This document shows, piece by piece, positions 1 to 33,700 of a stretch of 38,070 nucleotides of DNA. A program made the position numbers and the translations under genes. The notes under the pieces were generated by a model. That model was given only the letters and a program-made list of their open reading frames with translations. It was not told the origin of the DNA and did not search any database. The stretch is from Dimargaris cristalligena (lineage: Eukaryota), in the NCBI GenBank assembly GCA_003614675.1, contig ML002364.1:1-38070 (forward strand). The letters run 5' to 3'. The number at the start of each line of letters is the position of its first letter. The stretch's first letter is position 1.

Positions 1-6
1 CAGGGG

Positions 7-107
7 CAGGGGCAGGGGCTCATTCACTTGTCAGGGGCGTACTTCCGATAAGTGCGAAAAATAGATAAAAAATAAAAGTAGGTAAAAAATGTGGTAGGTT
101 CACCACA
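7..107. repeat. Left copy of a 101-bp inverted repeat, probably a transposable element terminus
   Basis: Ungapped match to the reverse complement of 37761-37861 at 95/101 positions. Contains CAGGGG units and an inner-edge hairpin TGTGGT-N6-ACCACA (90-107). Confidence 0.9.
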
Positions 108-1500
108 CCAGGCAACATAACCCACCTTTATTTTATGTACATGGCTTTCTATATTTGTTGGATTACCAGAAATTATGTGCTACTTGTGAAGAATGGCAGA
201 ATGCCACTTAAGGTCCTTTTCTTAATAATAGCAGGACAAAATACCAAAATCTGTATGTTGCCTACTTACTCTTACAGACACTACATCCAAGCTCCCTTAA
301 AGGCACATGCTAGTACATTTACTACCCATTACATCCCATTTGTCCATTAAAGTAAAAATAATTAGATGATATTGCCTAGATTAACTACTCTTAGTCCATC
401 AAGAGTCCTAAGGATAGGCTTCTAATGGTAGGTGGGGCTTAGGCTTGGCCAAGCAGTCTACTAGTGCCAGGTACAGGCATGGTACTACTGATAAAGGCTG
501 TGTACAGGTATAGGTAAGGGATGTGTAGTAGGTATACTTACTAGTTAGTATGAAGGGAGTGAGCATATATAGAGGCTATTGGGGGTAAACTAGGGGTAAG
601 AATAAGCTAAGGAATCTAACTAGACCCAATGGGGCCCATTTAGGTATATATGGGGATGACTTTAGATGGTGGTCCCAAGGGAAGGATACTACTAAGACTA
701 AGTTATGGATAAATAGGCTAACTGGATAGCTGTTAGTATCTGGAAGACTCTGATGGTAGCTGGAAGAGTCTTTAGATCAGCACTTGAGTGATTAGTATGA
801 AGTGGTGGAGTCTGGAAGAGGAAAAGTTATATAATATAGGGTGATCCCATAGTACTGGGGGTGACTATGGGAAGGTTATATAGTGCTGAAAGACCTAATG
901 GAGATGGACACTATTGTATCTGGATTAAGTCAGATTAGAAGGTCCAATACTAGGTAACCTTTGTTAAATGAACTGGGTTATTCTCCGGTTAACTCTAGCT
1001 GGCCCACCCAGACTGCTTTTTCATTAGGTAAGGAGGTCATTCTGATGATATGGGTTATCAGTCCCATAGCTGTTGTTTTGCACATATCTGCTAACTTAGC
1101 TATATGTTTTGGCCAAGTAAACTCAGTGGGGGCGGCGTCGTCAGAAAGATTGTTTGGTAAAGGTGTTGTCAGGTCAGGTTTATGCTTGTCAACTTCCCAA
1201 TCCCTCTTCTCAACCCGGGGGCCCAACAAAGAAAAGTAGGCATCCATATATATCAAAGTGTGTATTTCACGATTGCTGCTTCTTAATAAATGTTTATTGG
1301 TTTTGCCAGTCTATCGGAGCACTTCACCACTTGATATTAACCATTGCTGTGTCAACGTCCAACACCAACCGTTGGTTTCAGTGATCCCGAAATTACTCTG
1401 TCTGCATCTTCGACTATCCTCTTACCTGTTTGCTAGGATCTCCTGAATCATCACTAAAGTGTCCATAGAAGGAAGCCGGGTCCATACCCCCAACTGTTAC
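108..1500. other. CpG-depleted, degenerate repeat- or pseudogene-like region of unknown identity
   Basis: I found no CG dinucleotide between 57 and 985, and TAG/CTA are abundant. A minus-strand frame containing ORF 978..1256 is broken by scattered stops. No recognisable domain. The right boundary is approximate. Confidence 0.45.
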
Positions 1501-1784
1501 ATCTAGTGCATCGACGGTGGAGTTTCTCAGTACTATCAATGGTTATATAAATTGGGGGATTTTATTAGCCTAACTCTGAGTCCCTAATTAGTAGTACCGT
1601 ATAATAAAAAATGGGCTTGGAAAGATCGCAGCCACAACTATAATAAGATAACTTATGTGGAAACGCCCAGGTCACTAGGCGGAACCAGACAGGTCTAAGT
1701 AACACCCATAAATACAATGTTGTATAGAAGAATATACGCACGTTATCGGGAAAACAGCCCAATGAGCTTCTCTTATGGATATGT

Positions 1785-3306
1785 TTACGGACCAAGGTAA
1801 GCCAGAGACTCAATAGGATAGTAGTAAGCGGGGTTTGACTGCGTAAATGCCGCCTTGGCGAGATTAGGCGCAAACCTCGCCACATTAAGGCTCACGCCTA
1901 ATTCACCTTGGGATGATAAACGGAGCCAGTCCGACCCCATATTGAGCCCACGACATGCCACATTGCCCGAAACTGACCAGACACTAGCATCGCTAACTAG
2001 ATTGACCAAATAGTTCTCCTGTTTGTGGAGGCCCGATTTCACCAGAAATTTCTTGTAGCAGCTTAGACTTAGGTTGGCCGGACTGGAATTTAACACCTCG
2101 AGGAGCTTAAGCACTAACGTGTCGTTTTCATCTAGCGTAGCGAGAGTTAGGAGCAAGTAAGTGGATTGTAGTCGGCTGGGCTGAAGATCGCTGTCGTATT
2201 CACTCGCTCTCGACTGCGACCCAACAGGAATACCATCGATACCCAGGTACTGGCTGATAGCAGCGTACTGTTCAGTTTGGTAGAGATGTACAATGGCTAA
2301 ATGAATCGATAAATTCACCATCGTTGTGAGGGCGCATTTGGCACCGGTGTAGTATTCGCGCAGAGGCGCCATGTCAAGGTCCAACTCAGTCCCCGTTTGA
2401 TCCGACCAGATCTTGAAAACCTCACTATCACCATGAATTTTTTTGACGAGATTGTAAAGAGTACTCAGCGACTGTAATGTCTCGGTATTGGCATACTGGG
2501 CCACGGCTGAGCCGAAGGCCAGTGGTATGTTGTGCAAAAATCTTGGAGAAATTACCTTCCCATGTTTAAGTGGTCCCTTTTTCCATTGGTTTACATTCAC
2601 GTATTTCCAATTGGCGCTGGACAAGAGCAAATTGCCCCGGTTGGCACCCATGAATGGTTTAAAACATCTATCGGGGTCGGCTTGTTCTTGGAAAGCAGCA
2701 CCCAAACCCTCCCCTTGCATACCATAGCGTTCATACGTGAGTGTTTGTAGAGTCACCTCTGTCAAGGCCGCCGTCGATTCCACCGGAGCTAGTTTGTGCC
2801 ATTGCTTAGCCAAATCCTGGATGGCTCTTGGGTTGGGAGCGGGTTCCTTCAATAACTGACTGGTCTCACCTAAAAATTGATTCAACTAAAGGATATCAGC
2901 CAAAATGCGAATCAATATTAGTAAAAAAAAGTATAGTTGTTTCAACCAGTCGACAAGACCGAAGTCGGCCTTGGAATAAGTCCCTGTTACATGCCCGAAT
3001 TGAATTTATGATACCAATGCTTAGGGGATAATCATGCCGGGACAATAGCTAGCGAATGAATGGTTCAAAAACAGTACTCACCTTGGCGGTAGTCCATTCC
3101 TTTGGTATGTTCCTGGGGCCACCGTAGATGGATGCCATTGACATAAGCCAGTCTGCAAAGTCCAGATAGCCGCCAACATGAGCTATAAGTTCAGAGGGCA
3201 ATGTTTGACCCAGTTTACTGAGAGATTGGCGTTGAGGGTCTTTAGTGGCGGCCAAGGGATTGGTAAAAAGCACCAGTATCGCAGGGACTAAAACGGTGGC
3301 TTTCAT
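1785..3306 (-). CDS. Orphan protein of about 441 aa with predicted signal peptide and F-box-like motif (2 exons)
   Basis: Exon 1 is 3306-3082 (MKATVLVPAILVLFTNPLAA...WTTAK, 75 aa). Intron 3081-2886 has a GTGAGT donor, TACTAAT branch and TTTAG acceptor. The phase-0 join leads into the 366-aa ORF 2885-1785. Motif LPSELIAHVGGYLDFADWL lies at aa 36-54. Confidence 0.75.
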
Positions 3307-4996
3307 CTTTGGGTTTACTGGATAACGAATGAATGAACTGGAGAGGGGGATGTACAAAGAGCAGGTTTTGGTAATCGGGATATAGAGCGTTAGCATTACA
3401 TCCTGGAGCTAAACAGTAGACAGGTACGGGAGAACATTAGAAATATAGGCATGGGCGGATAATACAGCGGGACTTACCAAGCGCGGTGAATAAACTGGGA
3501 GAAAGAATTAGTGGAAATAGAGCGAAGAAGGCGGTAGGTGAGGAGGCTGCTAAATATTAGGGGGGCAGGCGGTCGGTATTAATCCATTTCTGCCTCATTT
3601 TTGTGCAGGGCATTGGTAACGATGCATTAAATTATATGTGAATATCTACCTTATTATATAGGGTTTATAGTGAAATGTAAACAATGGTATAGGTGGGACA
3701 TGTATTATAAACAAGTGCTACCTGTCTTACCAAACGAGCCATTTGGCTTACAACAGGGCCGCCCCATTATCACATTGCATCGTATTGGGGCGTTGGGATA
3801 AAGGGAAAACAATTTGCCGTTTTCAATCGATTAATAGGGAAAATACCAATAGTGGTTTATGGACTACAATTGTCTACCCCTCTTTCTAGAGACTTGCAAA
3901 ACCATTTGAATGGAAGAATTCGTTGGCGACTATAATTGGATTATAGTATTTAGTAGGGAGGACAGTGCAACCTCGGGTGACCCAAATGCATCCATCCCTC
4001 CAGCGGAATTAAACCAAAGGCAGCGTTTATATGGACATTGCTGGAGCAAGGGGTTTGGGGGAACTGCACCGTAGCCGCAAATATGGCGTACATTTGACTC
4101 CCTCTGCGGTGCCTGGTTTCTGATAATGATAACGTCTCTGTATTATAACATTTACTAAGAAATACTTACCCAGCAAAGTAATACATTCTTTAACCTACGA
4201 TATGACTTTAGGGACATCTGCTATAGTTGTGACTAGGGGTAGCGGTTAGGTTGAGCTAAACGAGGCTTGTCAGATCTACAGAGATGCCATTGAAACAGTG
4301 GCCAATAAATCGTATTATTATAATTTTCAAGTAATGAAATGGTCAGATACGGCGTTTTTCAACGAAGGAACCAAACATTTAAACTGAGCCAATTGCAAAT
4401 AGTGTAATGTACTATTATTGCAATCTATGGCTTAGATAAACCTACTCAAAAAGCCCGGGGTGAGATCCATATCTAAATAATCCGCCTGAGATCATATCCC
4501 TAAAGATAAGTCGGTGTTTGGCCGATAAACAGATAACCCACACTGGTTAATCCGTATTGAATCCATCCATCTATCTATATATACCGGTTATATATTTTAG
4601 CTTCTTTAAGTTGTAGGCATCGTAGTTTCCATTATTCAAAGACCTCTAATATATGTTGGAGTCGATCGTGGCCACATATTCTATTGCTGCGCGAGTATAT
4701 ACAGTGGGGCCAATCAACTATCGCTGAGCTACTTACTGGTCCTCGGAAAGCTTCGGAAGGAGCAGTCCAAATTGGGGGCTAGAATAACTCTCAGTCTACA
4801 TTGAGGCCATAAACTGGCCCTTGGCTTTACCTGCATTAACGGCCTATTTCCTGGGCTCTCAATTCAAACCCCTCTCCCCATTAGGCGATTCAAGAGTCTG
4901 GGCCAATTCGACTATTTTCCCTAACATTCGTCCGATCCAACCATTGTAACCGACAGACAATCCATATTACTCGCCAATACACCACCTTTTCATACC

Positions 4997-7240
4997 ATGA
5001 TGTTCCGAAATCTTAATTCGAGTCTAACTTCTACCCGTAAGTAAAGCGCTGTATAAGCAAATGAGCCCCATCGCATTCTGCATTACCACACACATGTGAA
5101 GTTACCCGAGGCCTCCCAGGTCTAGAAGGTTTATGCTCGTCCGTCTCGCGAGCCATTAGCTGGCCAAACTCTCTTAGGTTAACCTACTCTATTGTACCAA
5201 CGCGACCTCCCCCTCTATTCACATTGGTATCCACCGTGGATAGGCTATGCGTTAGCTCGGAGACTCGGGTTCCGGTCAACCCCCAGGAGTGTTCCATTCC
5301 AATGGACCTTACGCACCTTCCACCTGTCCGCTTACCTGGCCGCAGCGCAGCAACCTCCCACGGCCCATTCAAACCACGAAGCACCGAGCCAACTCAAGCC
5401 CCACTTTGATTTTCGGGCCATCCGGGACCGGGTCGATGCCATCGCCGCTAATGCTGAGCGCCGCAATTTTCACGATGTGGACGTGCGGGCGATTGTGGCC
5501 CAGTTCGAAAAAACCAACGAAATACTCCATGATTTAAACCAACAGCGGAATCTCCGAAACGACCTTGGCCGGCAAATCGGTCAATTAAAACGGGCAGCTA
5601 AAGGGGCTCCGGCGAAGGCTGCCCAAGAGAATGACGCTGATCAGCTTGCGCAGGAGGCCCGGGTGGTGCGGGACCGGTGTGCCGCATTGGAGGCAGATCA
5701 CGCCGAGCAGTATCATCGACTTATTCAGGAGACCCTCAAATTACCCAATGATACCCACCCTACCACTCCCGAAGGGGATGAAAACCAGGCCACCATAGTG
5801 AAAATGGTGGGTAAACCTCGTACGGTCTTGGTTACCCCATCGAATGAAGCACCGAACCCTATTCCCTATCGGGACCATCTCACCCTGTGCCAGGAACTCG
5901 ATCTGGTGGATTTCCAAGCCGCGGCGACGGTAACTGGGTCTAGTTTCTATTACCTCAAACGCGAGGCCGCCCTCCTGGAACTGGCCTTGGTTCAATACGC
6001 TATGCAGAAAGCCGTCGCCCGGGGCTTCATTCCGGTCCTGGCCCCGGATCTAGTCCGCCAGGATATCATGCACGGCTGTGGGTTCCGTCCCCGTAACGAC
6101 GAGGCCAATCAAACTTACTTTGTATCAGCGGTTCCTCCATCTCAGCCCGGTCGGGATACTAACGCCATTTCCACTTCGGACTCGCCCAGTGGCTCGTCGT
6201 CCTCGGCCCCGGCGAATGCCCCACCGCCGCTCTGTCTTACTGCCACGGCCGAAATTCCCCTGGCCGGACTATTCACCCACAAGCGGGTAGAACTTCGATC
6301 GCTGCCTCAGAAACTGGTGGCTTTCGGGCACTGTTTCCGGGCCGAGGCTGGCGCCCGGGGGGCCGAAACTCGGGGGTTATATCGCGTTCACCAATTCAGT
6401 AAAGTAGAATTATTTATGGTGTCCGATCCTCAGCACAGTGACCGGGCCTTGGAAGAAATCCGGGAACTGCAGGAAGACATTATAGGCAGTCTGGGAATTT
6501 GTTATAGGTCAGTGTACTTTTTGATTTTATTTAGAGGGACCATTCTGTTTTGCCACCGACGAACAGTAGAGGTGGTCTTTAGTATCAAACTACTTCATTG
6601 ACATGTATGTTCGTTGGATACATGACCAGGCCAGTTATGTCTAACCCGCTCTTTATTGCCCTTTATTATTTATTTCCTGTATGGTAGAGTTCTGGATATG
6701 CCTACGTTTGAATTGGGTGCCAGTGCTTACAAAAAATACGACATTGAGGCCTGGATGCCTGGTCGGCAGGCTTGGGGAGAGGTAAGTAGTTTCGGTCCTT
6801 TTCCTAATCTATCCGTAGCATACGAGGCATTGTGACTATCGAGCGATTTATACACACCATTCTGTATCTGCCATATTGAATCGTCCATTCCGGCCAGGTG
6901 GGTTATTATTATTTACACCGTAAGGTTGAACGGCCCTCTTAACATCTACACGGTTCGTTTAATCTACCCTTTCCCCTTGCTCAACTCGCAGATTTCAAGT
7001 GCCTCCAACTGCACCGACTACCAATCCCGACGACTTAATATCCGTTTTCACCCCACCCCAGATGCCAAAGCGCCTAATTTTGCGCACACCCTGAATGGCA
7101 CGGCCTGTGCGGTGCCTCGGTTAATTATCGCGATTTTGGAGACTTTCCAAACCCCTTCCGGGGAGGTGATAATACCGGAACCCCTCCGACCCTGGATGAT
7201 GGGTATTAGCAAAATCAGCCCCATTCGACCCAGTCCATAG
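4997..7240 (+). CDS. DIA4: Mitochondrial seryl-tRNA synthetase (DIA4/SARS2 type), about 548 aa, 4 exons
   Basis: Exons 4997-5036, 5244-6507, 6688-6781 and 6992-7240 with consistent phases (an alternative in-frame acceptor at 5255 is possible). SerRS motifs: [67 protein letters not shown]. The N-terminus is R/S/L-rich and acid-free, like a presequence. Confidence 0.93.
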
Positions 7241-7639
7241 TGGGGGAGGGGATTCGGACTATATGGGTGAAACAGCCGATTCCACGTTTAGTTCTGTAGC
7301 TGTTCAGTGCCTCTCGGTCGCTTTAATTATAAAAACCTAATAAATATCATTCAAAAAATACATCAGGCCTAATCTGGATGGAAGTTGGACAGTAAAAATA
7401 GAGAGACAGATTGCATTACAGGCACAATTTTATTTAAGCTGAATCGGAAATTTATCTTGATGTGGGTGGAATTTTCCGTGAAATAGCTGGTATAGGAGGG
7501 AGAGTTTCAAGAAAAATGGAGCTATAGTCATATATTGAAGACCGATTCGCAGGAAACTCTCCATTATTACATTTCGCTTGTTGTTGGAGAAGCTACTTTC
7601 CCTTCCCTCCTTGAATTCCTCTATTTTTTTCTATTCAAT

Positions 7640-10183
7640 ATGTCCAGCCAATCCCTACAAGCCTTGGAATCTCTGGCTGACCTTACCCACATCCGCATTC
7701 CAGATGATGACCTGGCTTTCGAAGACGACATTGTCCGGAATCCGAACACCCTACGCTGCTGGCTTCGTTATCTCGATCACAAAGCCGATGCCCCAATTTC
7801 CCATCGCGTGTTTCTGTACGAACGAGCCGTACATGAACTGCCGGGCTCCTACAAGCTCTGGAAGGCCTACCTAGACTTGCGGGTAAGCCTGGTGCGCGGC
7901 TGGAATCCCGTGGTGTACGCCGACCATTACAAACGCGTCAATCTTTGTTTCGAACGGGCCCTCATTCTGCTGCACAAGATGCCCCGTCTATGGCTGGACT
8001 ACACCGCTCTGTTGGCGAAACAACGCCTAGTGACCCAAACGCGACGCACCTTTGACCGGGCCCTGCGGTCGTTGCCCATCACCCAACACGACCGGATCTG
8101 GCAGTCCTACATTCGGTTCGCCGACCACACGGGGGGTGAAACCGCCCTCCGGGCTTACCGCCGCTACATTAAATTAGAGCCCCAGGCCATGGAGGTATAC
8201 ATTGCGCTCCTCAAGGAACTCCGGCACTACGACGAAGCGGCCGTACGTCTCGTGGAAATCATCGAGAATGAACGATTCGTGTCCCCCCAAGGAACCTCCC
8301 GTTACCAACTGTGGACCCAGCTGTGTGGGTTGTTGTGCGACCACCCCCGCGCGATTCGGTCCATCCGGGCCGAACCTATTATTCGATCAGGGATCCGCCG
8401 GTTCGCGGACCAGGCCGGGGCCCTATGGGCGGATTTGGCCCGCTATTGGATTCTCCTGGACCAACCCGAACGCGCCCGGGACGTATTCGAAGAAGGTATC
8501 CGGACCGCCATGACCGTACGTGACTTTGGGCAGGTGTTCGAAGCTTACCAAACGTTTCTGACCGTCACGGCGGAAGCGGCGTTGGCCGCGGCGGCTAGGC
8601 GAGAGGAAGAGGCGGCGGTGGAGCAGGGGGGAGCCCAGGGCTCCGCGGGGGCGGACTTGGACCTCGACCTTTTACTGTTGCGCCTCGAGGATTTGGCCTC
8701 TCGTCGCCCTTTTTTGGTCAACGACGTTGTGCTTCGTCAGAACCCCCATAATGTGCTGGAATGGCTCAACCGAGTGGATTTATGGGCCTCCGTCGATGAA
8801 TCCAAGGTGGTACCTACCTATACTGATGCGGTGGCCGCCATTCATCCCAAAAAGGCCGTCGGCAAACTTCACGACCTCTGGATTCGGTTTGCGCGCTACT
8901 TTGAGGATCACCAACAGCCGGAGGAGGCCCGGGAGGTCTGGGAACGCGCCGTCCGGGTCGATTACAAGAGCGTCAACGACTTGGCCGAGGTATGGTGTGC
9001 TTACGCGGATATGGAAGTCCGCTTGGGCGAATTCGACCGGGCCCTGGCGGTGCTTGGCCGGGCAACGGCGCCACCGGTCCAATGGCAGAAGGTGAAGTTC
9101 CACGACGACTCGGTACCTACCCAAAAGCGGGTCTTCAAGTCGATTCGCTTATGGACGCACTACCTGGATCTGGAGGAAAGTCTGGGCACCATGGAGGCCA
9201 CCAAGGCAGCCTACGACCAGGTCATGAGTCTCAAGATTGCCACCCCGCAAATTATAGTCAATTACGCCCAGTTCCTACAGGAGCGGAACTACTTCGAAGA
9301 AAGCTTTAAAGTGTACGAGCGGGGGGTGGACCAGTTCGGCTACCCCGTGGCCTTTGAGCTCTGGAATCTCTACTTAACCCAGTTTACCAAACGGTTCGGT
9401 GGGACTAAACTGGAACGTACGCGGGATTTATTTGAACAGGCACTCGTCAACTGCCCCCCGGAGTACGCCAAACCCCTATACCTCCTCTACGGCGAAATGG
9501 AGGAAACCCACGGCTCCAGCCGCCACGCGATGCGTATTTACGAGCGGGCCACCCAGGCCGTGACCGACGGCGATCGCTTGGCCATGTTCCAGTTTTACAT
9601 TGCCAAAACCAGTCAGCTGTTCGGAATCGTGGCCACCCGGGAAATTTACGAACGGGCTCTGGAGGTGCTCCCGGATACCCTGGCCCGTGAGATGGGACAG
9701 CAGTACGCGGAAGTGGAACTCAAACTGGGTGAAATTGACCGGGCTCGGGCCCTGTACGGTTACACCTCGCAGCTTTGTGAACCCCGGACCTGTCCGGCCT
9801 TCTGGAAGACCTGGCACGAGTTTGAGGTGAAGCACGGTAATGAGGAAACATTCAAGGAAATGATGCGGGTGAAACGTAGTGTGACGGCTAAGTATAATAC
9901 CGATTCTAATTATGTGGCGGCCCGGGTGGCTAACTCGCGACAGGCGAAGCCGGCCGCTGCCGCTAGTGCCGGGAGTGGTGGTTCGGGGGAGACCCTGACT
10001 GGGCCGCCCGCCCTGACCGAGACCAAGTCCCGGTCCCTTAAATTTGTGCCCAGCTCCACCTCGGTACCGTCACTGTCGGCGCCTCCCCAGCCGGCGGTTA
10101 AGAATCCCAATGAGCTCGCCGTTGATATTGACGATGACGATGATGATGATGATAATGATAATGATAATGCCGGTGATAAATAG
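7640..10183 (+). CDS. SYF1: Pre-mRNA splicing factor SYF1/XAB2 (HAT repeats), intronless, about 847 aa
   Basis: Motifs YERAVHELPGSYKLW, LRQNPHNVLEW, LKIATPQIIVNYA, KLERTRDLFEQAL, FEVKHGNEETFKEMMRVKRSV, plus an acidic tail. First in-frame ATG is at 7640. Confidence 0.96.
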   Translation: MSSQSLQALESLADLTHIRIPDDDLAFEDDIVRNPNTLRCWLRYLDHKADAPISHRVFLYERAVHELPGSYKLWKAYLDLRVSLVRGWNPVVYADHYKRVNLCFERALILLHKMPRLWLDYTALLAKQRLVTQTRRTFDRALRSLPITQHDRIWQSYIRFADHTGGETALRAYRRYIKLEPQAMEVYIALLKELRHYDEAAVRLVEIIENERFVSPQGTSRYQLWTQLCGLLCDHPRAIRSIRAEPIIRSGIRRFADQAGALWADLARYWILLDQPERARDVFEEGIRTAMTVRDFGQVFEAYQTFLTVTAEAALAAAARREEEAAVEQGGAQGSAGADLDLDLLLLRLEDLASRRPFLVNDVVLRQNPHNVLEWLNRVDLWASVDESKVVPTYTDAVAAIHPKKAVGKLHDLWIRFARYFEDHQQPEEAREVWERAVRVDYKSVNDLAEVWCAYADMEVRLGEFDRALAVLGRATAPPVQWQKVKFHDDSVPTQKRVFKSIRLWTHYLDLEESLGTMEATKAAYDQVMSLKIATPQIIVNYAQFLQERNYFEESFKVYERGVDQFGYPVAFELWNLYLTQFTKRFGGTKLERTRDLFEQALVNCPPEYAKPLYLLYGEMEETHGSSRHAMRIYERATQAVTDGDRLAMFQFYIAKTSQLFGIVATREIYERALEVLPDTLAREMGQQYAEVELKLGEIDRARALYGYTSQLCEPRTCPAFWKTWHEFEVKHGNEETFKEMMRVKRSVTAKYNTDSNYVAARVANSRQAKPAAAASAGSGGSGETLTGPPALTETKSRSLKFVPSSTSVPSLSAPPQPAVKNPNELAVDIDDDDDDDDNDNDNAGDK

Positions 10184-26754: not shown

Positions 26755-27768
26755 ATGGAACGTATTAAAACGAAAGCAGGAAGGAAGGCGGGTGCCCTGT
26801 CCCGGCTAATCCTCCGAGACCCTTTAAATAAATTAGATTTAGATTGATATACATTTATCGACATTTACGATATGCCTCGGCTACTATTTGTGTTTGCTTG
26901 CGGTATGGACTATGGCGTGGTATGGCTTCAGCTACAATCAAATCCAATGGGCGAATTTACCTTGGATATATTAATGTTGACTGCCAAACTTGTTGGTTTT
27001 TTTCGCTACAGTGGCCTCCAGAGCTCTACTAGTTTGAAACCAGGGGTGGGGTCAGAGTAACCACCATCATTTTCACTACTGGACCAGTCAGTTACACACT
27101 GAATATTGATGGTATAGTCCGCCGAGTCGGTTTCCAAGAGGCTGTATTATGAATATTAGTCAGGGGCACGGGTGTGTCTTCCCATCCTCCCGCTAGTCTT
27201 TACTTTAAAACATCCATAAATAGACTTACATACACATCATATACATTTGTACGCGGTAGGCCAGAGCAGAGTGGAATTAAGCCCGGTGGCAATCCGACCG
27301 TTGCGGCCAGTGATGGGGGGGGAGGATATTGGGTAGGGCTTGGCTTTTTCAGAACCCCACTCAGGCATTGTTCTAGACATGGAGGGAGAGTGTATGTATA
27401 TGGGCAACTTAATATACGCAACGGGCTTGGCACCCTCTTATGTGTATTCCCGCCCATATGCGGGAAGTATGTAAATGTATGGGCGGTGGGTGGGGAGGGG
27501 GGGACCCGTGCCCTAAGAGCCGAGTGACTAATCCCCCCCCCCCTCTCGTCGTCTCCCCTCTCTCCTCCACTCTTCGGTTTTCAGGACTATTTATTTATCT
27601 ATATGCCCACAGAGTTCCCCCCCCCCTTTCCCTCTCTTTATACATATTATCCTTCTCTCATCCCCCCCTCCCTACTCGACTGACTGCCTCGTTGAATTCC
27701 CCGTTTCCTTCTCGTCCTTACTTCCCTTTCTCCTCGCCATATCCCTCCGCCCTCCCCCCCCCATTCGG

Positions 27769-29781
27769 ATGCCATCCGCCCACCTTTCTAGCGCCTACCG
27801 CTCGGTAGCCGACGTCCCTTTTGGGGTACACTTAGGCTTTGAACTTCCGTCCCCGGTAGCTTTACCTTTTGACTACATTATGGTCACCGATTCCGTCTCG
27901 GCCATCCCCAAATACGATTTCGCTCTCGAAAAGAAAATCCTCGAGGAAGTCGAGGAGCGCCGCAAAACGGAACAGCTCCAGGCCTTGACCCAGGCCGAAC
28001 AGAAACGCATGACCCTGATGTTGGCCCACGCTTCGCTGGGCGTGGGCAGTTCGACGGGGGCTAGCTCCAACTCCACTATCGCTGCTTCGGCTATGGTTTC
28101 TTCAGCGTCGGCTTCCGTAGCAGCGCTGGCCCAAGTTCCCAGTCAAGTTATGACAGCCCCGGCCGCTAGTCCAGCGGCGGGAAGGAATTCCATGGTTTCA
28201 CCAGTTCCCACTACAACCACCACCACCACCACTACTACTACTACCATACCTACAACTGCGACGAACGAGGCGGCTTTCCAGGGTCCCCCAACATCCCTAC
28301 CACCCAACAACACCAGTACCACTTTTGGTTCTAATGCTTCCATGTACATGACTCCTTCCAGCCAGTTCCAGCCCCAGTCTCATCCACCGCACTCCATGGC
28401 CAGCCCTCCCCACATGGCATCCCCTCCAGCGGTTGAAACAGCCACTCCCAATACCAATCCCAATACGACGGCTACGACTACAGTCTCTGCCGCCGCCTAC
28501 TCGTCGTCCTACTCAGCGTATGCTAATACTGGGCCAAACGGCGGGAGCTACTATCCCCCGGCCACCTCCCAGCAGCCCCCCACCAAACCCCAATACCAGC
28601 ACCAATCCCAACCTGAATACCAATACCAATACCAGAATACGTATCAGAGTCAGCCCCCACAATCGCAATCACAGCCACAGCTACCACCACCACAACAGCA
28701 ACAACAGCAGGCACAACCACAATCAAGACCGCAACCTCCCGCTCCGACGAACTATATGCCCAACAACTCCCCTCCTGCTCTGCCCACCAAGCCGGCTTCC
28801 AGTCCCGGTTACATGTCCAATGCTCCCTCCGACTACGGCGGTGGTTCCCCCTATACCAACAGTCCCGGCTCCTCAAGCACCGCCCCTCCCCCCATTCCCC
28901 CCCGCCTCCCGAAACGGCCCGCTAATAATTCGTTCATCACTCCCGTCGGTCCCTATGCCTCCTCCCCTTCTCTTAATACGTCGTCGGTCAACGGTACCCC
29001 CACGATGCCCTCAATATCCCCCGGCCAACGGCCCCCTATTCCACATTACGGTCAGCCAAACCAGTCCCAATCCCAATCCCAATCCCAATCCCAGTATCAA
29101 AACCTAAACCAAAACCAATATCAACAGCCACCCCAGTCCCCGACCTATAACAATACCAATGCCAATACCCATAACTATGGCGGGGGAGCCCCCCCACCAC
29201 CACCCCCGCCCGTACCTCCGAAATCATTCATCCTAAGTGATTACGATTATATCCAATCGGCCCACGTCAATACCCTTCTCCCCCCGCCCCAGTCTTCTTC
29301 TACCCCGTACCAATCCCAGTCGGCTACCTCAGATTATAATCCCTACGGTAACACCACCATGCCCTCGGGAGGGAACTCCCAGCAGTACTCACACCTGGCT
29401 TCGTCCCATGGCGGCGGCGGTGGTGGTGGCCCATCCTCCAGTGGTGGTGATTATCCACCTTATTCATCATCCTACCACAACAACTCTTCCACGTCCATGG
29501 GGGGCCTCCCTTCCGGATCAGGCGTCGGTGCCGGGTCGAGTAGTAGTAGTAGTAGTATGCCCCATCCTAATCAGTCGTCCGGTTATCCGTCCTCCCACCA
29601 CTACCACCACCATACTTCGCAATCCCCCTACCCGTTCCAAGATGATAATGATCCCAATACCGTCGAACAGGTCCGTGACCTGATGGCAATGGGCTTCTCC
29701 CGCCATCAGGCCGTACACGCCCTGGAAGCCTTTGACTATGATTTAACCAAGGCGACCAATTATCTTTTGGACCAATCTTAA
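27769..29781 (+). CDS. UBAP1-like protein with N-terminal UMA domain, P/Q/S-rich linker and C-terminal UBA domain, 670 aa
   Basis: VADVPFGVHLGFELPSPVALP...YDFALEKKILEE resembles the UMA domain. VRDLMAMGFSRHQAVHALEAFDYDLTKATNYLL is a UBA (MGF) signature. Confidence 0.8.
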   Translation: MPSAHLSSAYRSVADVPFGVHLGFELPSPVALPFDYIMVTDSVSAIPKYDFALEKKILEEVEERRKTEQLQALTQAEQKRMTLMLAHASLGVGSSTGASSNSTIAASAMVSSASASVAALAQVPSQVMTAPAASPAAGRNSMVSPVPTTTTTTTTTTTTIPTTATNEAAFQGPPTSLPPNNTSTTFGSNASMYMTPSSQFQPQSHPPHSMASPPHMASPPAVETATPNTNPNTTATTTVSAAAYSSSYSAYANTGPNGGSYYPPATSQQPPTKPQYQHQSQPEYQYQYQNTYQSQPPQSQSQPQLPPPQQQQQQAQPQSRPQPPAPTNYMPNNSPPALPTKPASSPGYMSNAPSDYGGGSPYTNSPGSSSTAPPPIPPRLPKRPANNSFITPVGPYASSPSLNTSSVNGTPTMPSISPGQRPPIPHYGQPNQSQSQSQSQSQYQNLNQNQYQQPPQSPTYNNTNANTHNYGGGAPPPPPPPVPPKSFILSDYDYIQSAHVNTLLPPPQSSSTPYQSQSATSDYNPYGNTTMPSGGNSQQYSHLASSHGGGGGGGPSSSGGDYPPYSSSYHNNSSTSMGGLPSGSGVGAGSSSSSSSMPHPNQSSGYPSSHHYHHHTSQSPYPFQDDNDPNTVEQVRDLMAMGFSRHQAVHALEAFDYDLTKATNYLLDQS

Positions 29782-30777: not shown

Positions 30778-33700
30778 TTACTTGCGGGCCATCGGCTGTC
30801 TATCCGACGGAAGGGCCGGTAGCGGATGTCCCCCTAGCCCGCCTCCCCCACTCATATTGGCACCGGTGGGAGATAAAGGCGAATTGGTCGAGCTCATAGC
30901 CTTATCCATCCAGGCTTGGAGTAGTTTATCGGCGATCCCCGGCACTTCCAATTCCGCCCGGTGGAACGCCTCCGCCAGGGCTTTGAGGGCGTTCCGTGCA
31001 GGCAGGTGCGGGGTACGCAGTTGGAGTTGCCGAATGACAGGGTCGATGATTTGGCGGTGGGTGGTGTGCGGGGACGTAAAGGCGAACGTGACACGAGATG
31101 AGTTTTTAGCTTGGGACCCCCCGGGGCTTGCCGAAGGGGAAGCCGGGATCCCACTGGGGCCGGGGGGCGTCGTCGAGGATAGGGAGAGGCCCGCCAAATT
31201 AGGGGGCTTGGGCGGAACCATGAGCGGTGATTTGAGCCCGCTGGCCCCCCCGGAGGCGCCGTGTCCATTCCCATAGTGACTACCGGCGGTCCGGGGCGAT
31301 GGGAGGTGAGTCGACCCTGGGTTATGCTGCCCGTTCAATTTAGCCGAACTGGCCGAGGCCATACCGCTCCCACTACTACTACTACTACTATTTCCACTAT
31401 GCAACCCGTTGCGAGTGGGCAAGGCATGCATCCCGAGCGGGTTAGTCACCTTACGCAGTTGGGGAGTAAAATCATGACCACCACTGGTCGTCGAAGTTGA
31501 CGTGGTGGTAGTCGACGACACCGTGGCAAGCGAGGCCGTTGATGCCGTTGGCGACAGCAGTCCCGAAGAATTGGACTTGATGGCCGAGTCATTCTGCAAT
31601 CCCGTTGAAGAAGTCGTAGAAGAGGACGATAGGGCCGTTTCATGGGATAGCTCACTCGACGGTGTACCCCGACGGAGGTAATTCTTGATGAACAAATTCT
31701 CGTTCAGCCCCTGGCCCGTGAGTTTCGGGGGTGGGTTGGCCGCCGCACCGGAAACTCCCGCAGGGTTATCCGTAGAGGATCGGTGGGTCAAGATCCCGCC
31801 CCCATAAGGTGAGCGGAACTCGGTGCTGTGGCCGTTGTTTGAGTTGGAATGGTCGTTCAGGCCGGAGTCCGTACTAAACTCCGATCGTAAGGCGGAGGTG
31901 GAGGCTCGGGGGCGCGCCTGGCCCGCGGCGGGAATGTTACTTCCACCTGTGGCTGTCGACCCTACATTGGTGGCGGCATTCGAGGTACCCAGAGCATCCT
32001 TAGCGCGCTGAAGAGCAGTAGCTGCCGAGGCTCTTAGCTGCTGCAGCGAAGGCGGACGATTCGGAGTGGAAGGCGATGGACTATTCCGACTTTGGTTAGT
32101 ATTGTTCATATCCGAGCCGCCGAAGGAGGAGGAGGATGGCACGGGAGAGGCCGGCTGCGATGAATGAAGGCGTTCGTAGGCCGCGGGCATCACCGGATTC
32201 GAGTAGGAGTTAGCACTGCTTCCAGCATTGCTGGATGGCGGTGTGGAATCGCGGGACCCCACAAGCTGGCTATGTCCCAAACCCTGACCGTATCCATGGC
32301 CGTGGCCACCGAATGCGGGAGCCGGCACGGCCGATGCAGCGCGGGGTCGAGATGAACCGGGAGAATTGTTAATCGAGACGGAGGAGGCGGTGGATTTGGT
32401 CGGCGAACCTGGATAGCCACTAACATTGGGCCTGACGGGGGATGGGGCAATTAATTGCTGGGGCGAAGCGGTGCCCGTGCGCTTGGTAGGTGTAGTGGGC
32501 TGCGGGGGTAACGGGGCGTTCGGGACATGCCGTTGCTGCACCGTACCGAAATCCCAATCATCGCCACCGCCACCGCTACCGGAACCCGATTCGTCATCAG
32601 CCACGGCTTCGGACATGCGGCGGCCACCCCCGGCTGCAGGGGCGGCAGCGTCACCTCCACCTTCTTTACCGTCCTTACCTTTATTGGGCTGCCGATTAAT
32701 TCCCAACTGAGCCAGACTCTGTCCCCCTCTCGCCAGTAAATGCCGATCCCGCCGTTCAATCAAGTCGGTTAAATACGACGTTTTTCGGGCATTCCGAATA
32801 AAGCGATGTTTCAGCAAATCTTTGGCCGTGGGTCGTAAAGCAGGATCCTTGTTCAAACACAAGCTGACGAACTCTTTGAACGGCTTCGTGAACTCACCCG
32901 TTAGGACCGGGGGTTCATTTTTAGGGATGAGGAACAGGACCTTCATGGGGTGTAGTTCAGCGTAGGGGGGTTGCCCCTTCGCCATTTCTATAGCAGTAAT
33001 GCCGAGCGACCAGATGTCGGCTTTGGGCCCATAGCCCGATTGTTTGATGACCTCCGGGGCCATCCAAAAGGGGGTCCCCACGAATGTATTCTTCTTGGTC
33101 ATGGTTGCCGACAATTGACCTGACACGCCGAAATCGGCCAGTTTAATATCGCCTGATGCTGAAAGGAGGATGTTGGCGGCCTTGATGTCGCGGTGCAACT
33201 TACGCTCGTTATGGAGGTAATCAAGGCCTTTAATGATCTCGCGCATGATAATGGCGATGTAGAGTTCGGGGATCAGGCCTGGTTTCATTAGATCGGCGCA
33301 GGACCCACCTGCACAGTATTCCATCACAATCCAGAGATTGGAGCCTTTGAGGTAGGAACCGAAGTAACGAGTAACGAAGGGAGAATCCATTTGGGCAAGA
33401 ATTTGGATCTCGAGCTGGATGTCTTCTATTTCATCTTCGGCACTTTCGAGGTCGATGATCTTGATGGCGACGGGACGTTTGTTGGCACGATCGAACCTAG
33501 AGGGGATTATGCGTGGATATGGGTATGGATGTAATGTAATAAATACATCGTATATATAATCGAATGGGTCAGAAGAGAGTATAGACATAATAAATCAGAT
33601 AGGTCATATCTATGGTGGTCAGGATGAATATACTATCACTGGATATGGCAGGGAAGTGTAAAGTTGGCTTACCCTTTGTAGACTTCGCCAAAGGACCCTT

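Follow-up and report, generated by a model that had tools for sequence, protein, structure and literature searches.

Does the gene on the minus strand at positions 1785–3306 of the window (the whole stretch of DNA analysed, 38,070 nucleotides of Dimargaris cristalligena contig ML002364.1) encode a secreted F-box protein that diverts the ubiquitin ligases of another cell? A preliminary description, made from the DNA letters, had proposed this for what it took to be an orphan gene with a signal peptide, an F-box-like segment and an unrecognised body, lying beside repeats. The reading preferred here, to which a probability of about one half is given, is that the product is a secretory-pathway, probably exported, all-alpha protein from a five-gene, species-restricted family, which is a candidate effector and does not act through Skp1. 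The earlier proposal was upheld as regards the parasitic organism, the structure of the gene, the repeats at the edge and a likely export signal, but not in its central mechanism, the F-box-like half-motif lying below the family threshold.

The gene is real and is already present in the public catalogues as a hypothetical protein. As had been described, two open reading frames (ORFs) are joined through a 196-nucleotide GT-AG intron into a product of 441 residues, exon 1 running from 3306 to 3082 and exon 2 from 2885 to 1785. Exon 1 (P0001) holds 75 codons from the ATG at 3306 and ends in AAG, followed by the donor GTGAGT, at 3082/3081. The intron (2886–3081) is of phase 0 and contains a TACTAAT branch-like site, the CTAAT of which lies 31 nucleotides ahead of the TTTAG acceptor; its retention leads to an in-frame stop 10 codons further on. 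Exon 2 comprises 366 codons and a TAA (1787–1785), and encodes an all-alpha body of no known family. Residues 1–439 of the public 478-residue Dimargaris cristalligena model (RKP38465.1, P0011) are identical to the spliced product, and therefore the junction had already been annotated and was rediscovered in the preliminary description. Furthermore, the join is independently backed by homology, because the paralogue P0005 is colinear across it (IPK/LNSFL in the window gene and TAK/LNQFL in P0005, with the slash at the junction). Exon 1 matched the first 69 residues of this paralogue with 30/69 identities and an E value of 2e-17. Five sequencing runs contain the stretch, and no RNA run is listed among them.

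The gene is not a lone orphan, being one of five paralogues within a single species. Besides the window gene (P0011), the family comprises P0004/P0005 (locus tags BJ085DRAFT_30030 and H4R33_001991), P0006/P0009 (30029 and 001990), P0007/P0010 (H4R33_002106 and 33775) and P0008 (28507), all of them named Dimargaris cristalligena. Two paralogues have consecutive locus tags on one contig (30029/30030; 001990/001991), and hence stand in tandem. Full-length identity to the window protein was 41–51% for the close pair and 21–22% for the two distant members. A HMMER profile search of 1,835,955,588 representative proteins returned five matches at E≤0.001, all from this species, and the word-based protein searches returned three and two matches, only from Dimargaris cristalligena. 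When residues 30–80 were used in the word-based search, no candidate sharing three words was obtained, and no further paralogue was detected by tblastn inside the window (next best E 0.065). The family was found only in Dimargaris cristalligena, although "species-restricted" may only mean that its other carriers are not yet sampled. One article (PMC9866270) reports further assemblies of Dimargaritales and describes the order as mycoparasites of other fungi, which use an appressorium and a haustorium. Together with the naming of all the relatives, this agrees with the parasitic fungus that had been assumed.

The start of the protein (residues 1–21; 3244–3306) looks like a cleavable signal peptide, as claimed at the outset, according to a reading by eye supported by hydropathy. 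The n-, h- and c-regions correspond to MK, ATVLVPAILVLF and TNPLAA, respectively, with the predicted cut before the following T; a positive n-region, an h-region of 7–15 residues, a polar c-region and small residues before the cut were all recognised in this way. Hydropathy reached up to 2.8 over 11 residues and fell below 0 by residue 14. A similar start, with MK, a hydrophobic core of 11–13 residues and a polar c-region, was present in four of the five paralogues, P0010 being the fifth with the weaker start MHLKDLLCPLVASKLTAF. The core of P0008, FGIALFALLAG (11 residues), is flanked by N and R and is too short for a bilayer span. A cleaved signal is favoured over an anchor because the hydrophobic cores are this short. 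Outside the N-terminus, the best 19-residue hydropathy in the window protein was 1.43, and no second segment stood clearly above the membrane-span threshold.

Additionally, two cysteines were conserved in all five paralogues, with spacings of 35, 35, 35, 31 and 31 residues. In the window protein they are C351 (2060–2058) and C386 (1955–1953), at the two ends of the stretch 1953–2060, and this pair probably forms a disulfide. The protein is considered an effector candidate because it combines a predicted signal peptide with restriction to one lineage and the absence of any known domain, in a parasite; the absence of a further membrane span completes the usual profile of such candidates.

Behind the predicted cut, residues 23–31 (3214–3240) hold a family-conserved P-Q-R-Q-[ST]-[LP], a stretch that could act as a sorting signal or belong to a propeptide. 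All of the paralogues except the window copy, which has R-Q-S, share [RG]-Q-T at this point. In two paralogues a G-K-R is added, a possible Kex2-type processing site; a KR site of this type after the signal peptide was discarded as a feature of the family, being present in only two of five members and not in the window copy. The QRQ[ST]L core is reminiscent of the motif that directs yeast carboxypeptidase Y to the vacuole.

The F-box question turned on the segment LPSELIAHVGGYLDFADWL, at residues 36–54 (3145–3201). It follows the pattern LPxELxxxI/VxxYLxxxDL that had been pointed out, and it resembles the first half of an F-box, but the profile match remained below threshold. With exon 1 alone, PF12937 (F-box-like) gave an E value of 0.21 and 11.8 bits against a cut-off of 24.3, a shortfall of 12.5 bits, and residues 35–54 were aligned to positions 3–22 of the 47 in the profile only. 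The curated cut-off for membership in PF00646 or PF12937 was not reached. The N-termini of the other four paralogues matched no Pfam family at E≤10 (one match among the five overall), and the same was true of all six full-length family models; P0004 and P0005 gave no F-box match either. Paralogues of the same architecture, a search for which had been suggested as a check, were recovered in part: the five members exist and the signal-like start is shared by four, but the F-box-like match is confined to one N-terminus in five.

The remainder of the domain was searched for in the third helix, which has the consensus V-x-K/R-x-W in F-boxes. At this place the five paralogues hold IYGGP, IHGGL, IHGSV, LPGEPG and LQGAGP, that is, Gly-rich turns of the type I-[YH]-G-[GS] or P-G-E-P-G, and W71 is unique to the window copy. 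A whole three-helix F-box module, of about 45 residues and with hydrophobic and Trp positions in the third helix, was not recovered. No F-box chain was listed when PDB sequences were searched with exon 1 on its own or with profiles of the whole family and of its N-termini. Only a spidroin (E 0.56) was retrieved with the whole-family profile, and only cystathionine gamma-lyases (E 0.54–0.79) with the N-terminal one. In the language-model search with residues 28–95, the top F-box match scored 0.88, under the 0.9 bar of the method, and shared 84 of 256 features, where relatives usually share at least 170. When the whole protein was compared with the ESM Atlas, the best score was 0.80, a level also reached by shuffled proteins, and the F-box cluster came 16th at 0.75. 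The presence of a true F-box-type module is given a chance of roughly one in four. The F-box reading is a live lead, and the resemblance is too weak to say that the protein hijacks host degradation. The Pfam Skp1 family (PF01466) had no match in one record or in 14 control genomes.

The best PDB match of exon 1 was E. coli glutaredoxin 1 (17.4 bits, E 0.046, residues 20–55), and it was rejected as a product of chance. The likeness (3142–3249) concerns twelve residues, HVGGYLDFADWL against HIGGYTDFAAWV, with the pattern H[VI]GGYxDFAxW[LV] from the region of the C-terminal GG motif. It was taken as accidental because the paralogues conserve neither the GG nor its flanks, and because it is not preceded by an active-site region. 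This match outscores the F-box-like one, and shows the level that chance attains for the exon 1 stretch.

The approximately 370 residues downstream had been reported as unrecognisable, and indeed no Pfam family matched them. AlphaFold2 with three sequences (exon 2) gave an unusable model, with a predicted local distance difference test score (pLDDT) of 33.2. With six family sequences on the 478-residue P0011, a predicted template modelling score of 0.62 and a mean pLDDT of 55.3 were obtained, and the core blocks at residues 71–110, 201–290 and 311–340 had a pLDDT of 72–88. The model is all-helical, with motif helices at 38–45 and 50–61, a helix at 69–88 and about 15 more, and two short strands near 396–406. 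When the whole 478-residue model was compared with the PDB by Foldseek, the lowest E value was 0.39, and no match passed the limit of E≤0.001. The comparison by VIA-align covered 48,161 chains, of which 37 scored Z≥5 and none Z≥8; the top Z was 6.7, and the tool's own note describes such values as common for helical models. No F-box protein was among the matches listed (the best 50 of each tool), the whole model having been searched, with a motif region of pLDDT 44–68.

The long VIA-align alignments were with generic helical repeats (symplekin, CLASP TOG, importins) and ran from model residues ~36–40 to 380–388; they start early enough that they include the motif. The best of them, over ~190–213 residues, relate the model to alpha-solenoids (HEAT/ARM/TOG-like; symplekin 3o2q, CLASP2 TOG 3woz). 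The window protein aligned at Z 6.3–6.6 with a root-mean-square deviation of 5.4–8.8 Å, a range common for helical models, and showed no sequence relation. The predicted fold of the body is all-alpha, and no relative of it was recognised. Substrate-binding modules such as the leucine-rich repeat (LRR), WD40 or ankyrin repeats of known F-box effectors were not recognised in it, and the LRR that stands behind the F-box in GALA/RipG and SSGP-71 found no match either in the Pfam searches of the six models or in the all-helical model.

Under the preferred reading, a cleavable signal peptide (residues 1 to about 21) would take the protein into the endoplasmic reticulum, and the mature protein, of approximately 420 residues, would form one continuous all-alpha body. 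The LPxEL...L segment would be the first helix pair of that body, and the family-conserved cysteine pair would be oxidised to a disulfide. The protein would then be exported to the fungal surface or to the interface with the host fungus. The resemblance to an F-box would be a motif-level likeness of an amphipathic helix, and no docking on Skp1 would take place.

Several observations weigh against this preferred reading. PF12937 was the sole Pfam family matching exon 1, and among the named clusters of the language-model search with residues 28–95 an F-box cluster came first (0.88), followed by others at 0.82 and 0.81; nine of the ten best named matches belonged to the F-box family. The pattern of a P with hydrophobic residues at +3, +4, +7 and +11 was kept in all five paralogues, with LPxE[LI] in three, IPNEI in the fourth and SPL-LI in the fifth. 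The LP/hydrophobic pattern persists even in paralogues that are only 15–20% identical over the N-terminal segment, as it would in a functional motif. The hydropathy over 19 residues (residues 3–21) was 1.76, and 2.32 in P0009, both within the membrane-span range; P0009 also has an internal 19-residue stretch at 1.95, which keeps a membrane topology in play. The protein is large (441 residues) and cysteine-poor (four Cys), unlike the classic small cysteine-rich effectors. The confidence of AlphaFold2 was middling (mean pLDDT 55; 44–68 per block over residues 31–70), and both export and expression are presumed.

Some of these points favour the original proposal, in which a family of divergent, half-length F-box mimics would be exported by the classical secretory route and released from the haustorium into the host fungus. 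The helix pair would dock on host Skp1 and the all-alpha body would recruit host proteins, retargeting the Skp1-cullin-F-box (SCF) ubiquitin ligases towards them. We regard this as unlikely. The signal-peptide-like start in four of five paralogues, the F-box-like Pfam match, the language-model ranking and the conserved pattern all fit it, and F-box proteins usually carry their F-box at the N-terminus, ahead of a helical or solenoid body. Agrobacterium VirF and Legionella AnkB are secreted or injected F-box effectors. Precedents outside the fungi with a proven Skp1 interaction are RipG7/GALA7 of Ralstonia and SSGP-71 of the Hessian fly, which have clear F-boxes and LRR bodies according to PMC4617103, and the fungus is a haustorial mycoparasite (PMC9866270). 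Nevertheless, the match is partial and below the cut-off, none of the other four N-termini and none of the six full-length models matches an F-box family at E≤10, a Gly-rich turn stands where the third helix should be, and no F-box chain emerged from the PDB sequence searches or among the fold matches listed. The language-model score lies below its bar, and a second data set (run X5) carries the replacement S38F within the motif. The effector recruiting host Skp1 and SCF through an F-box, as initially conceived, is not sustained by these results.

As in the F-box domain (PF00646, PF12937), the window protein has L-P-x-E-[LI]-[LI]-x-x-[VI]-x-x-x-L near the N-terminus and a large helical body; unlike it, the protein scores at half of the cut-off, leaves the second half of the domain unmatched, carries a signal peptide ahead of the motif where cytosolic F-box proteins have none, and belongs to a family in which four of five N-termini lack a match. 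With RipG/GALA, SSGP-71, VirF and AnkB it shares the architecture that had been proposed, with a (here predicted) export signal and, ahead of a repeat or helical body, an F-box-type motif at the N-terminus. In these effectors, however, the F-box is recognised by profiles, the body consists of LRR or ankyrin repeats and an interaction with Skp1/ASK has been demonstrated, whereas the window protein has no significant F-box, LRR or ankyrin match. A non-exhaustive search of the literature found no secreted F-box effector of a fungus, and PMC8146833 calls the direct link of the F-box domain to eukaryotic pathogenicity unclear, with little supporting material; in PMC13382533 the term is confined to the references.

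An improbable alternative is that the gene encodes an endogenous F-box protein or another cytosolic protein, whose hydrophobic start would not be cleaved off and would be an N-terminal anchor, with the rest of the protein facing the cytosol, or would lie internally if the in-frame ATG at 3396 were used. Membrane-tethered F-box proteins exist, and the F-box-like leads (PF12937 and the language model) would serve this alternative as well. The hydropathy values over residues 3–21 and in P0009 are also compatible with it, and basic residues follow the hydrophobic stretch (K22, R26 and K31; KR in two paralogues). Upstream, 30 in-frame codons are open from ATG 3396 (3307–3396), with no stop before 3306, and would add 30 residues if used; this extension is absent from P0011 and is unmatched by the starts of the paralogues. 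However, four of the five paralogue models and the public model begin at MK. The hydrophobic core has only 11–13 residues and is followed by T-N-P, T-D-S or G-R-Q, for which a signal peptide is the better fit, and P0005 has H and D within the stretch. The conserved cysteine pair is in keeping with an oxidising compartment, and the F-box evidence is as weak here as for a secreted mimic. A two-codon ATG-TAA mini-ORF at 3401–3396 overlaps the upstream ATG.

The public model differs from the gene structure used here at the 3' end only, where P0011 splices past the TAA into two more small exons and gains 39 residues. Its route (1414–1792) goes from a weak donor through an ORF at 1414–1539 to a last exon of three codons. 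The 39 extra residues have no counterpart in any paralogue, and the extension is probably an annotation artefact. Behind the stop, an in-frame remnant (1720–1784) reads …LAYLGP*TYP*EKLIGLFSR* and looks like the C-terminal tails of the paralogues, which are longer (…LAKFEPKQSLLKEIGNFFTQR…); its portion TYP*EKLIGLFSR* (1720–1790) is similar to the paralogue tail KEIGNFFTQR. The earlier stop was preferred over the P0011 extension because the paralogue tails match this remnant. It appears that a stop codon has deprived the window copy of about 20 residues at the C-terminus. In run X5, which comes from a different study, the gene is intact, with three synonymous changes (codons 295, 390 and 398), one intron change and two replacements, A91T and S38F, the latter at the x of LPxEL (3194 G>A). 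That this is a decaying or silent paralogue, no longer used, is very unlikely: its frame ends about 20 residues early relative to the paralogues, with the remnant of the old tail behind two stop codons, and it sits at a scaffold edge adjoining high-copy repeats, but the frame of 441 codons is uninterrupted and its GT-AG intron intact, all of the family-invariant positions are retained, X5 keeps the frame with three synonymous and two non-synonymous changes, and the absence of the last 20 residues may be without consequence.

For the preferred reading, the closest comparison is with haustorial fungi such as rusts and powdery mildews, which have lineage-specific candidate secreted effector proteins. 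The window protein resembles these in its signal peptide, the lack of a known domain, the restriction to one lineage, the small family with a tandem pair and the position near repeats; it differs in being much larger and cysteine-poor, and in that the host is another fungus. To our knowledge, almost nothing has been established on the means by which Dimargaris and other haustorial mycoparasites manipulate the fungi that host them. On the present evidence, the gene adds one more uncharacterised candidate secreted protein, and its species-restricted, export-tagged family of five genes offers studies of mycoparasitism a short and concrete list of candidates. If the Skp1-docking proposal were true, no secreted F-box effector from a fungus would precede this protein, and no effector mechanism would have been described before it for a haustorial parasite of one fungus on another; if the F-box likeness is functional, the hijacking of SCF, until now reported from bacteria and from a gall midge, would extend to fungi.

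The gene lies beside a repeat-rich edge, as had been observed, with high-copy DNA ending the scaffold about 0.9 kb beyond its stop. This short-box repeat DNA occupies positions 1–900 and includes (CAGGGG)x3.2 at 1–19. Contigs of three runs were compared with positions 1–8000 of the window. In X5, the summed contig depth of the first four bins was 234,994, 101,367, 21,727 and 17,743, against 194.9 in the unique part, with 2,174 contig pieces over positions 1–8000 and unique contigs starting at 849, 857 and 919. Boxes of about 75–120 bases are joined within 1–900 in many different orders, with many joints. One gene adjoining one repeat block is no evidence of an effector compartment.

Upstream of the gene, 1.9 kb of non-coding DNA lies between it and a seryl-tRNA synthetase gene of divergent orientation. 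Housekeeping proteins are encoded in the remainder of the window: Syf1, an ANTH and I/LWEQ protein, PRMT5, an ArfGAP-ankyrin protein, PRA isomerase, a UBA protein and a kinase. The long ORF with a terminal UBA domain (27532–29781, plus strand) contains arrays of the hexamers CCAATC/CCAATA (28442–29173) that are translated into low-complexity protein repeats. The C-terminal part of the kinase ORF (30781–33594, minus strand; 938 residues) weakly matches the PDCD10 dimerisation domain, with an E value of 0.0003 and 20.8 bits where the cut-off is 19.8.

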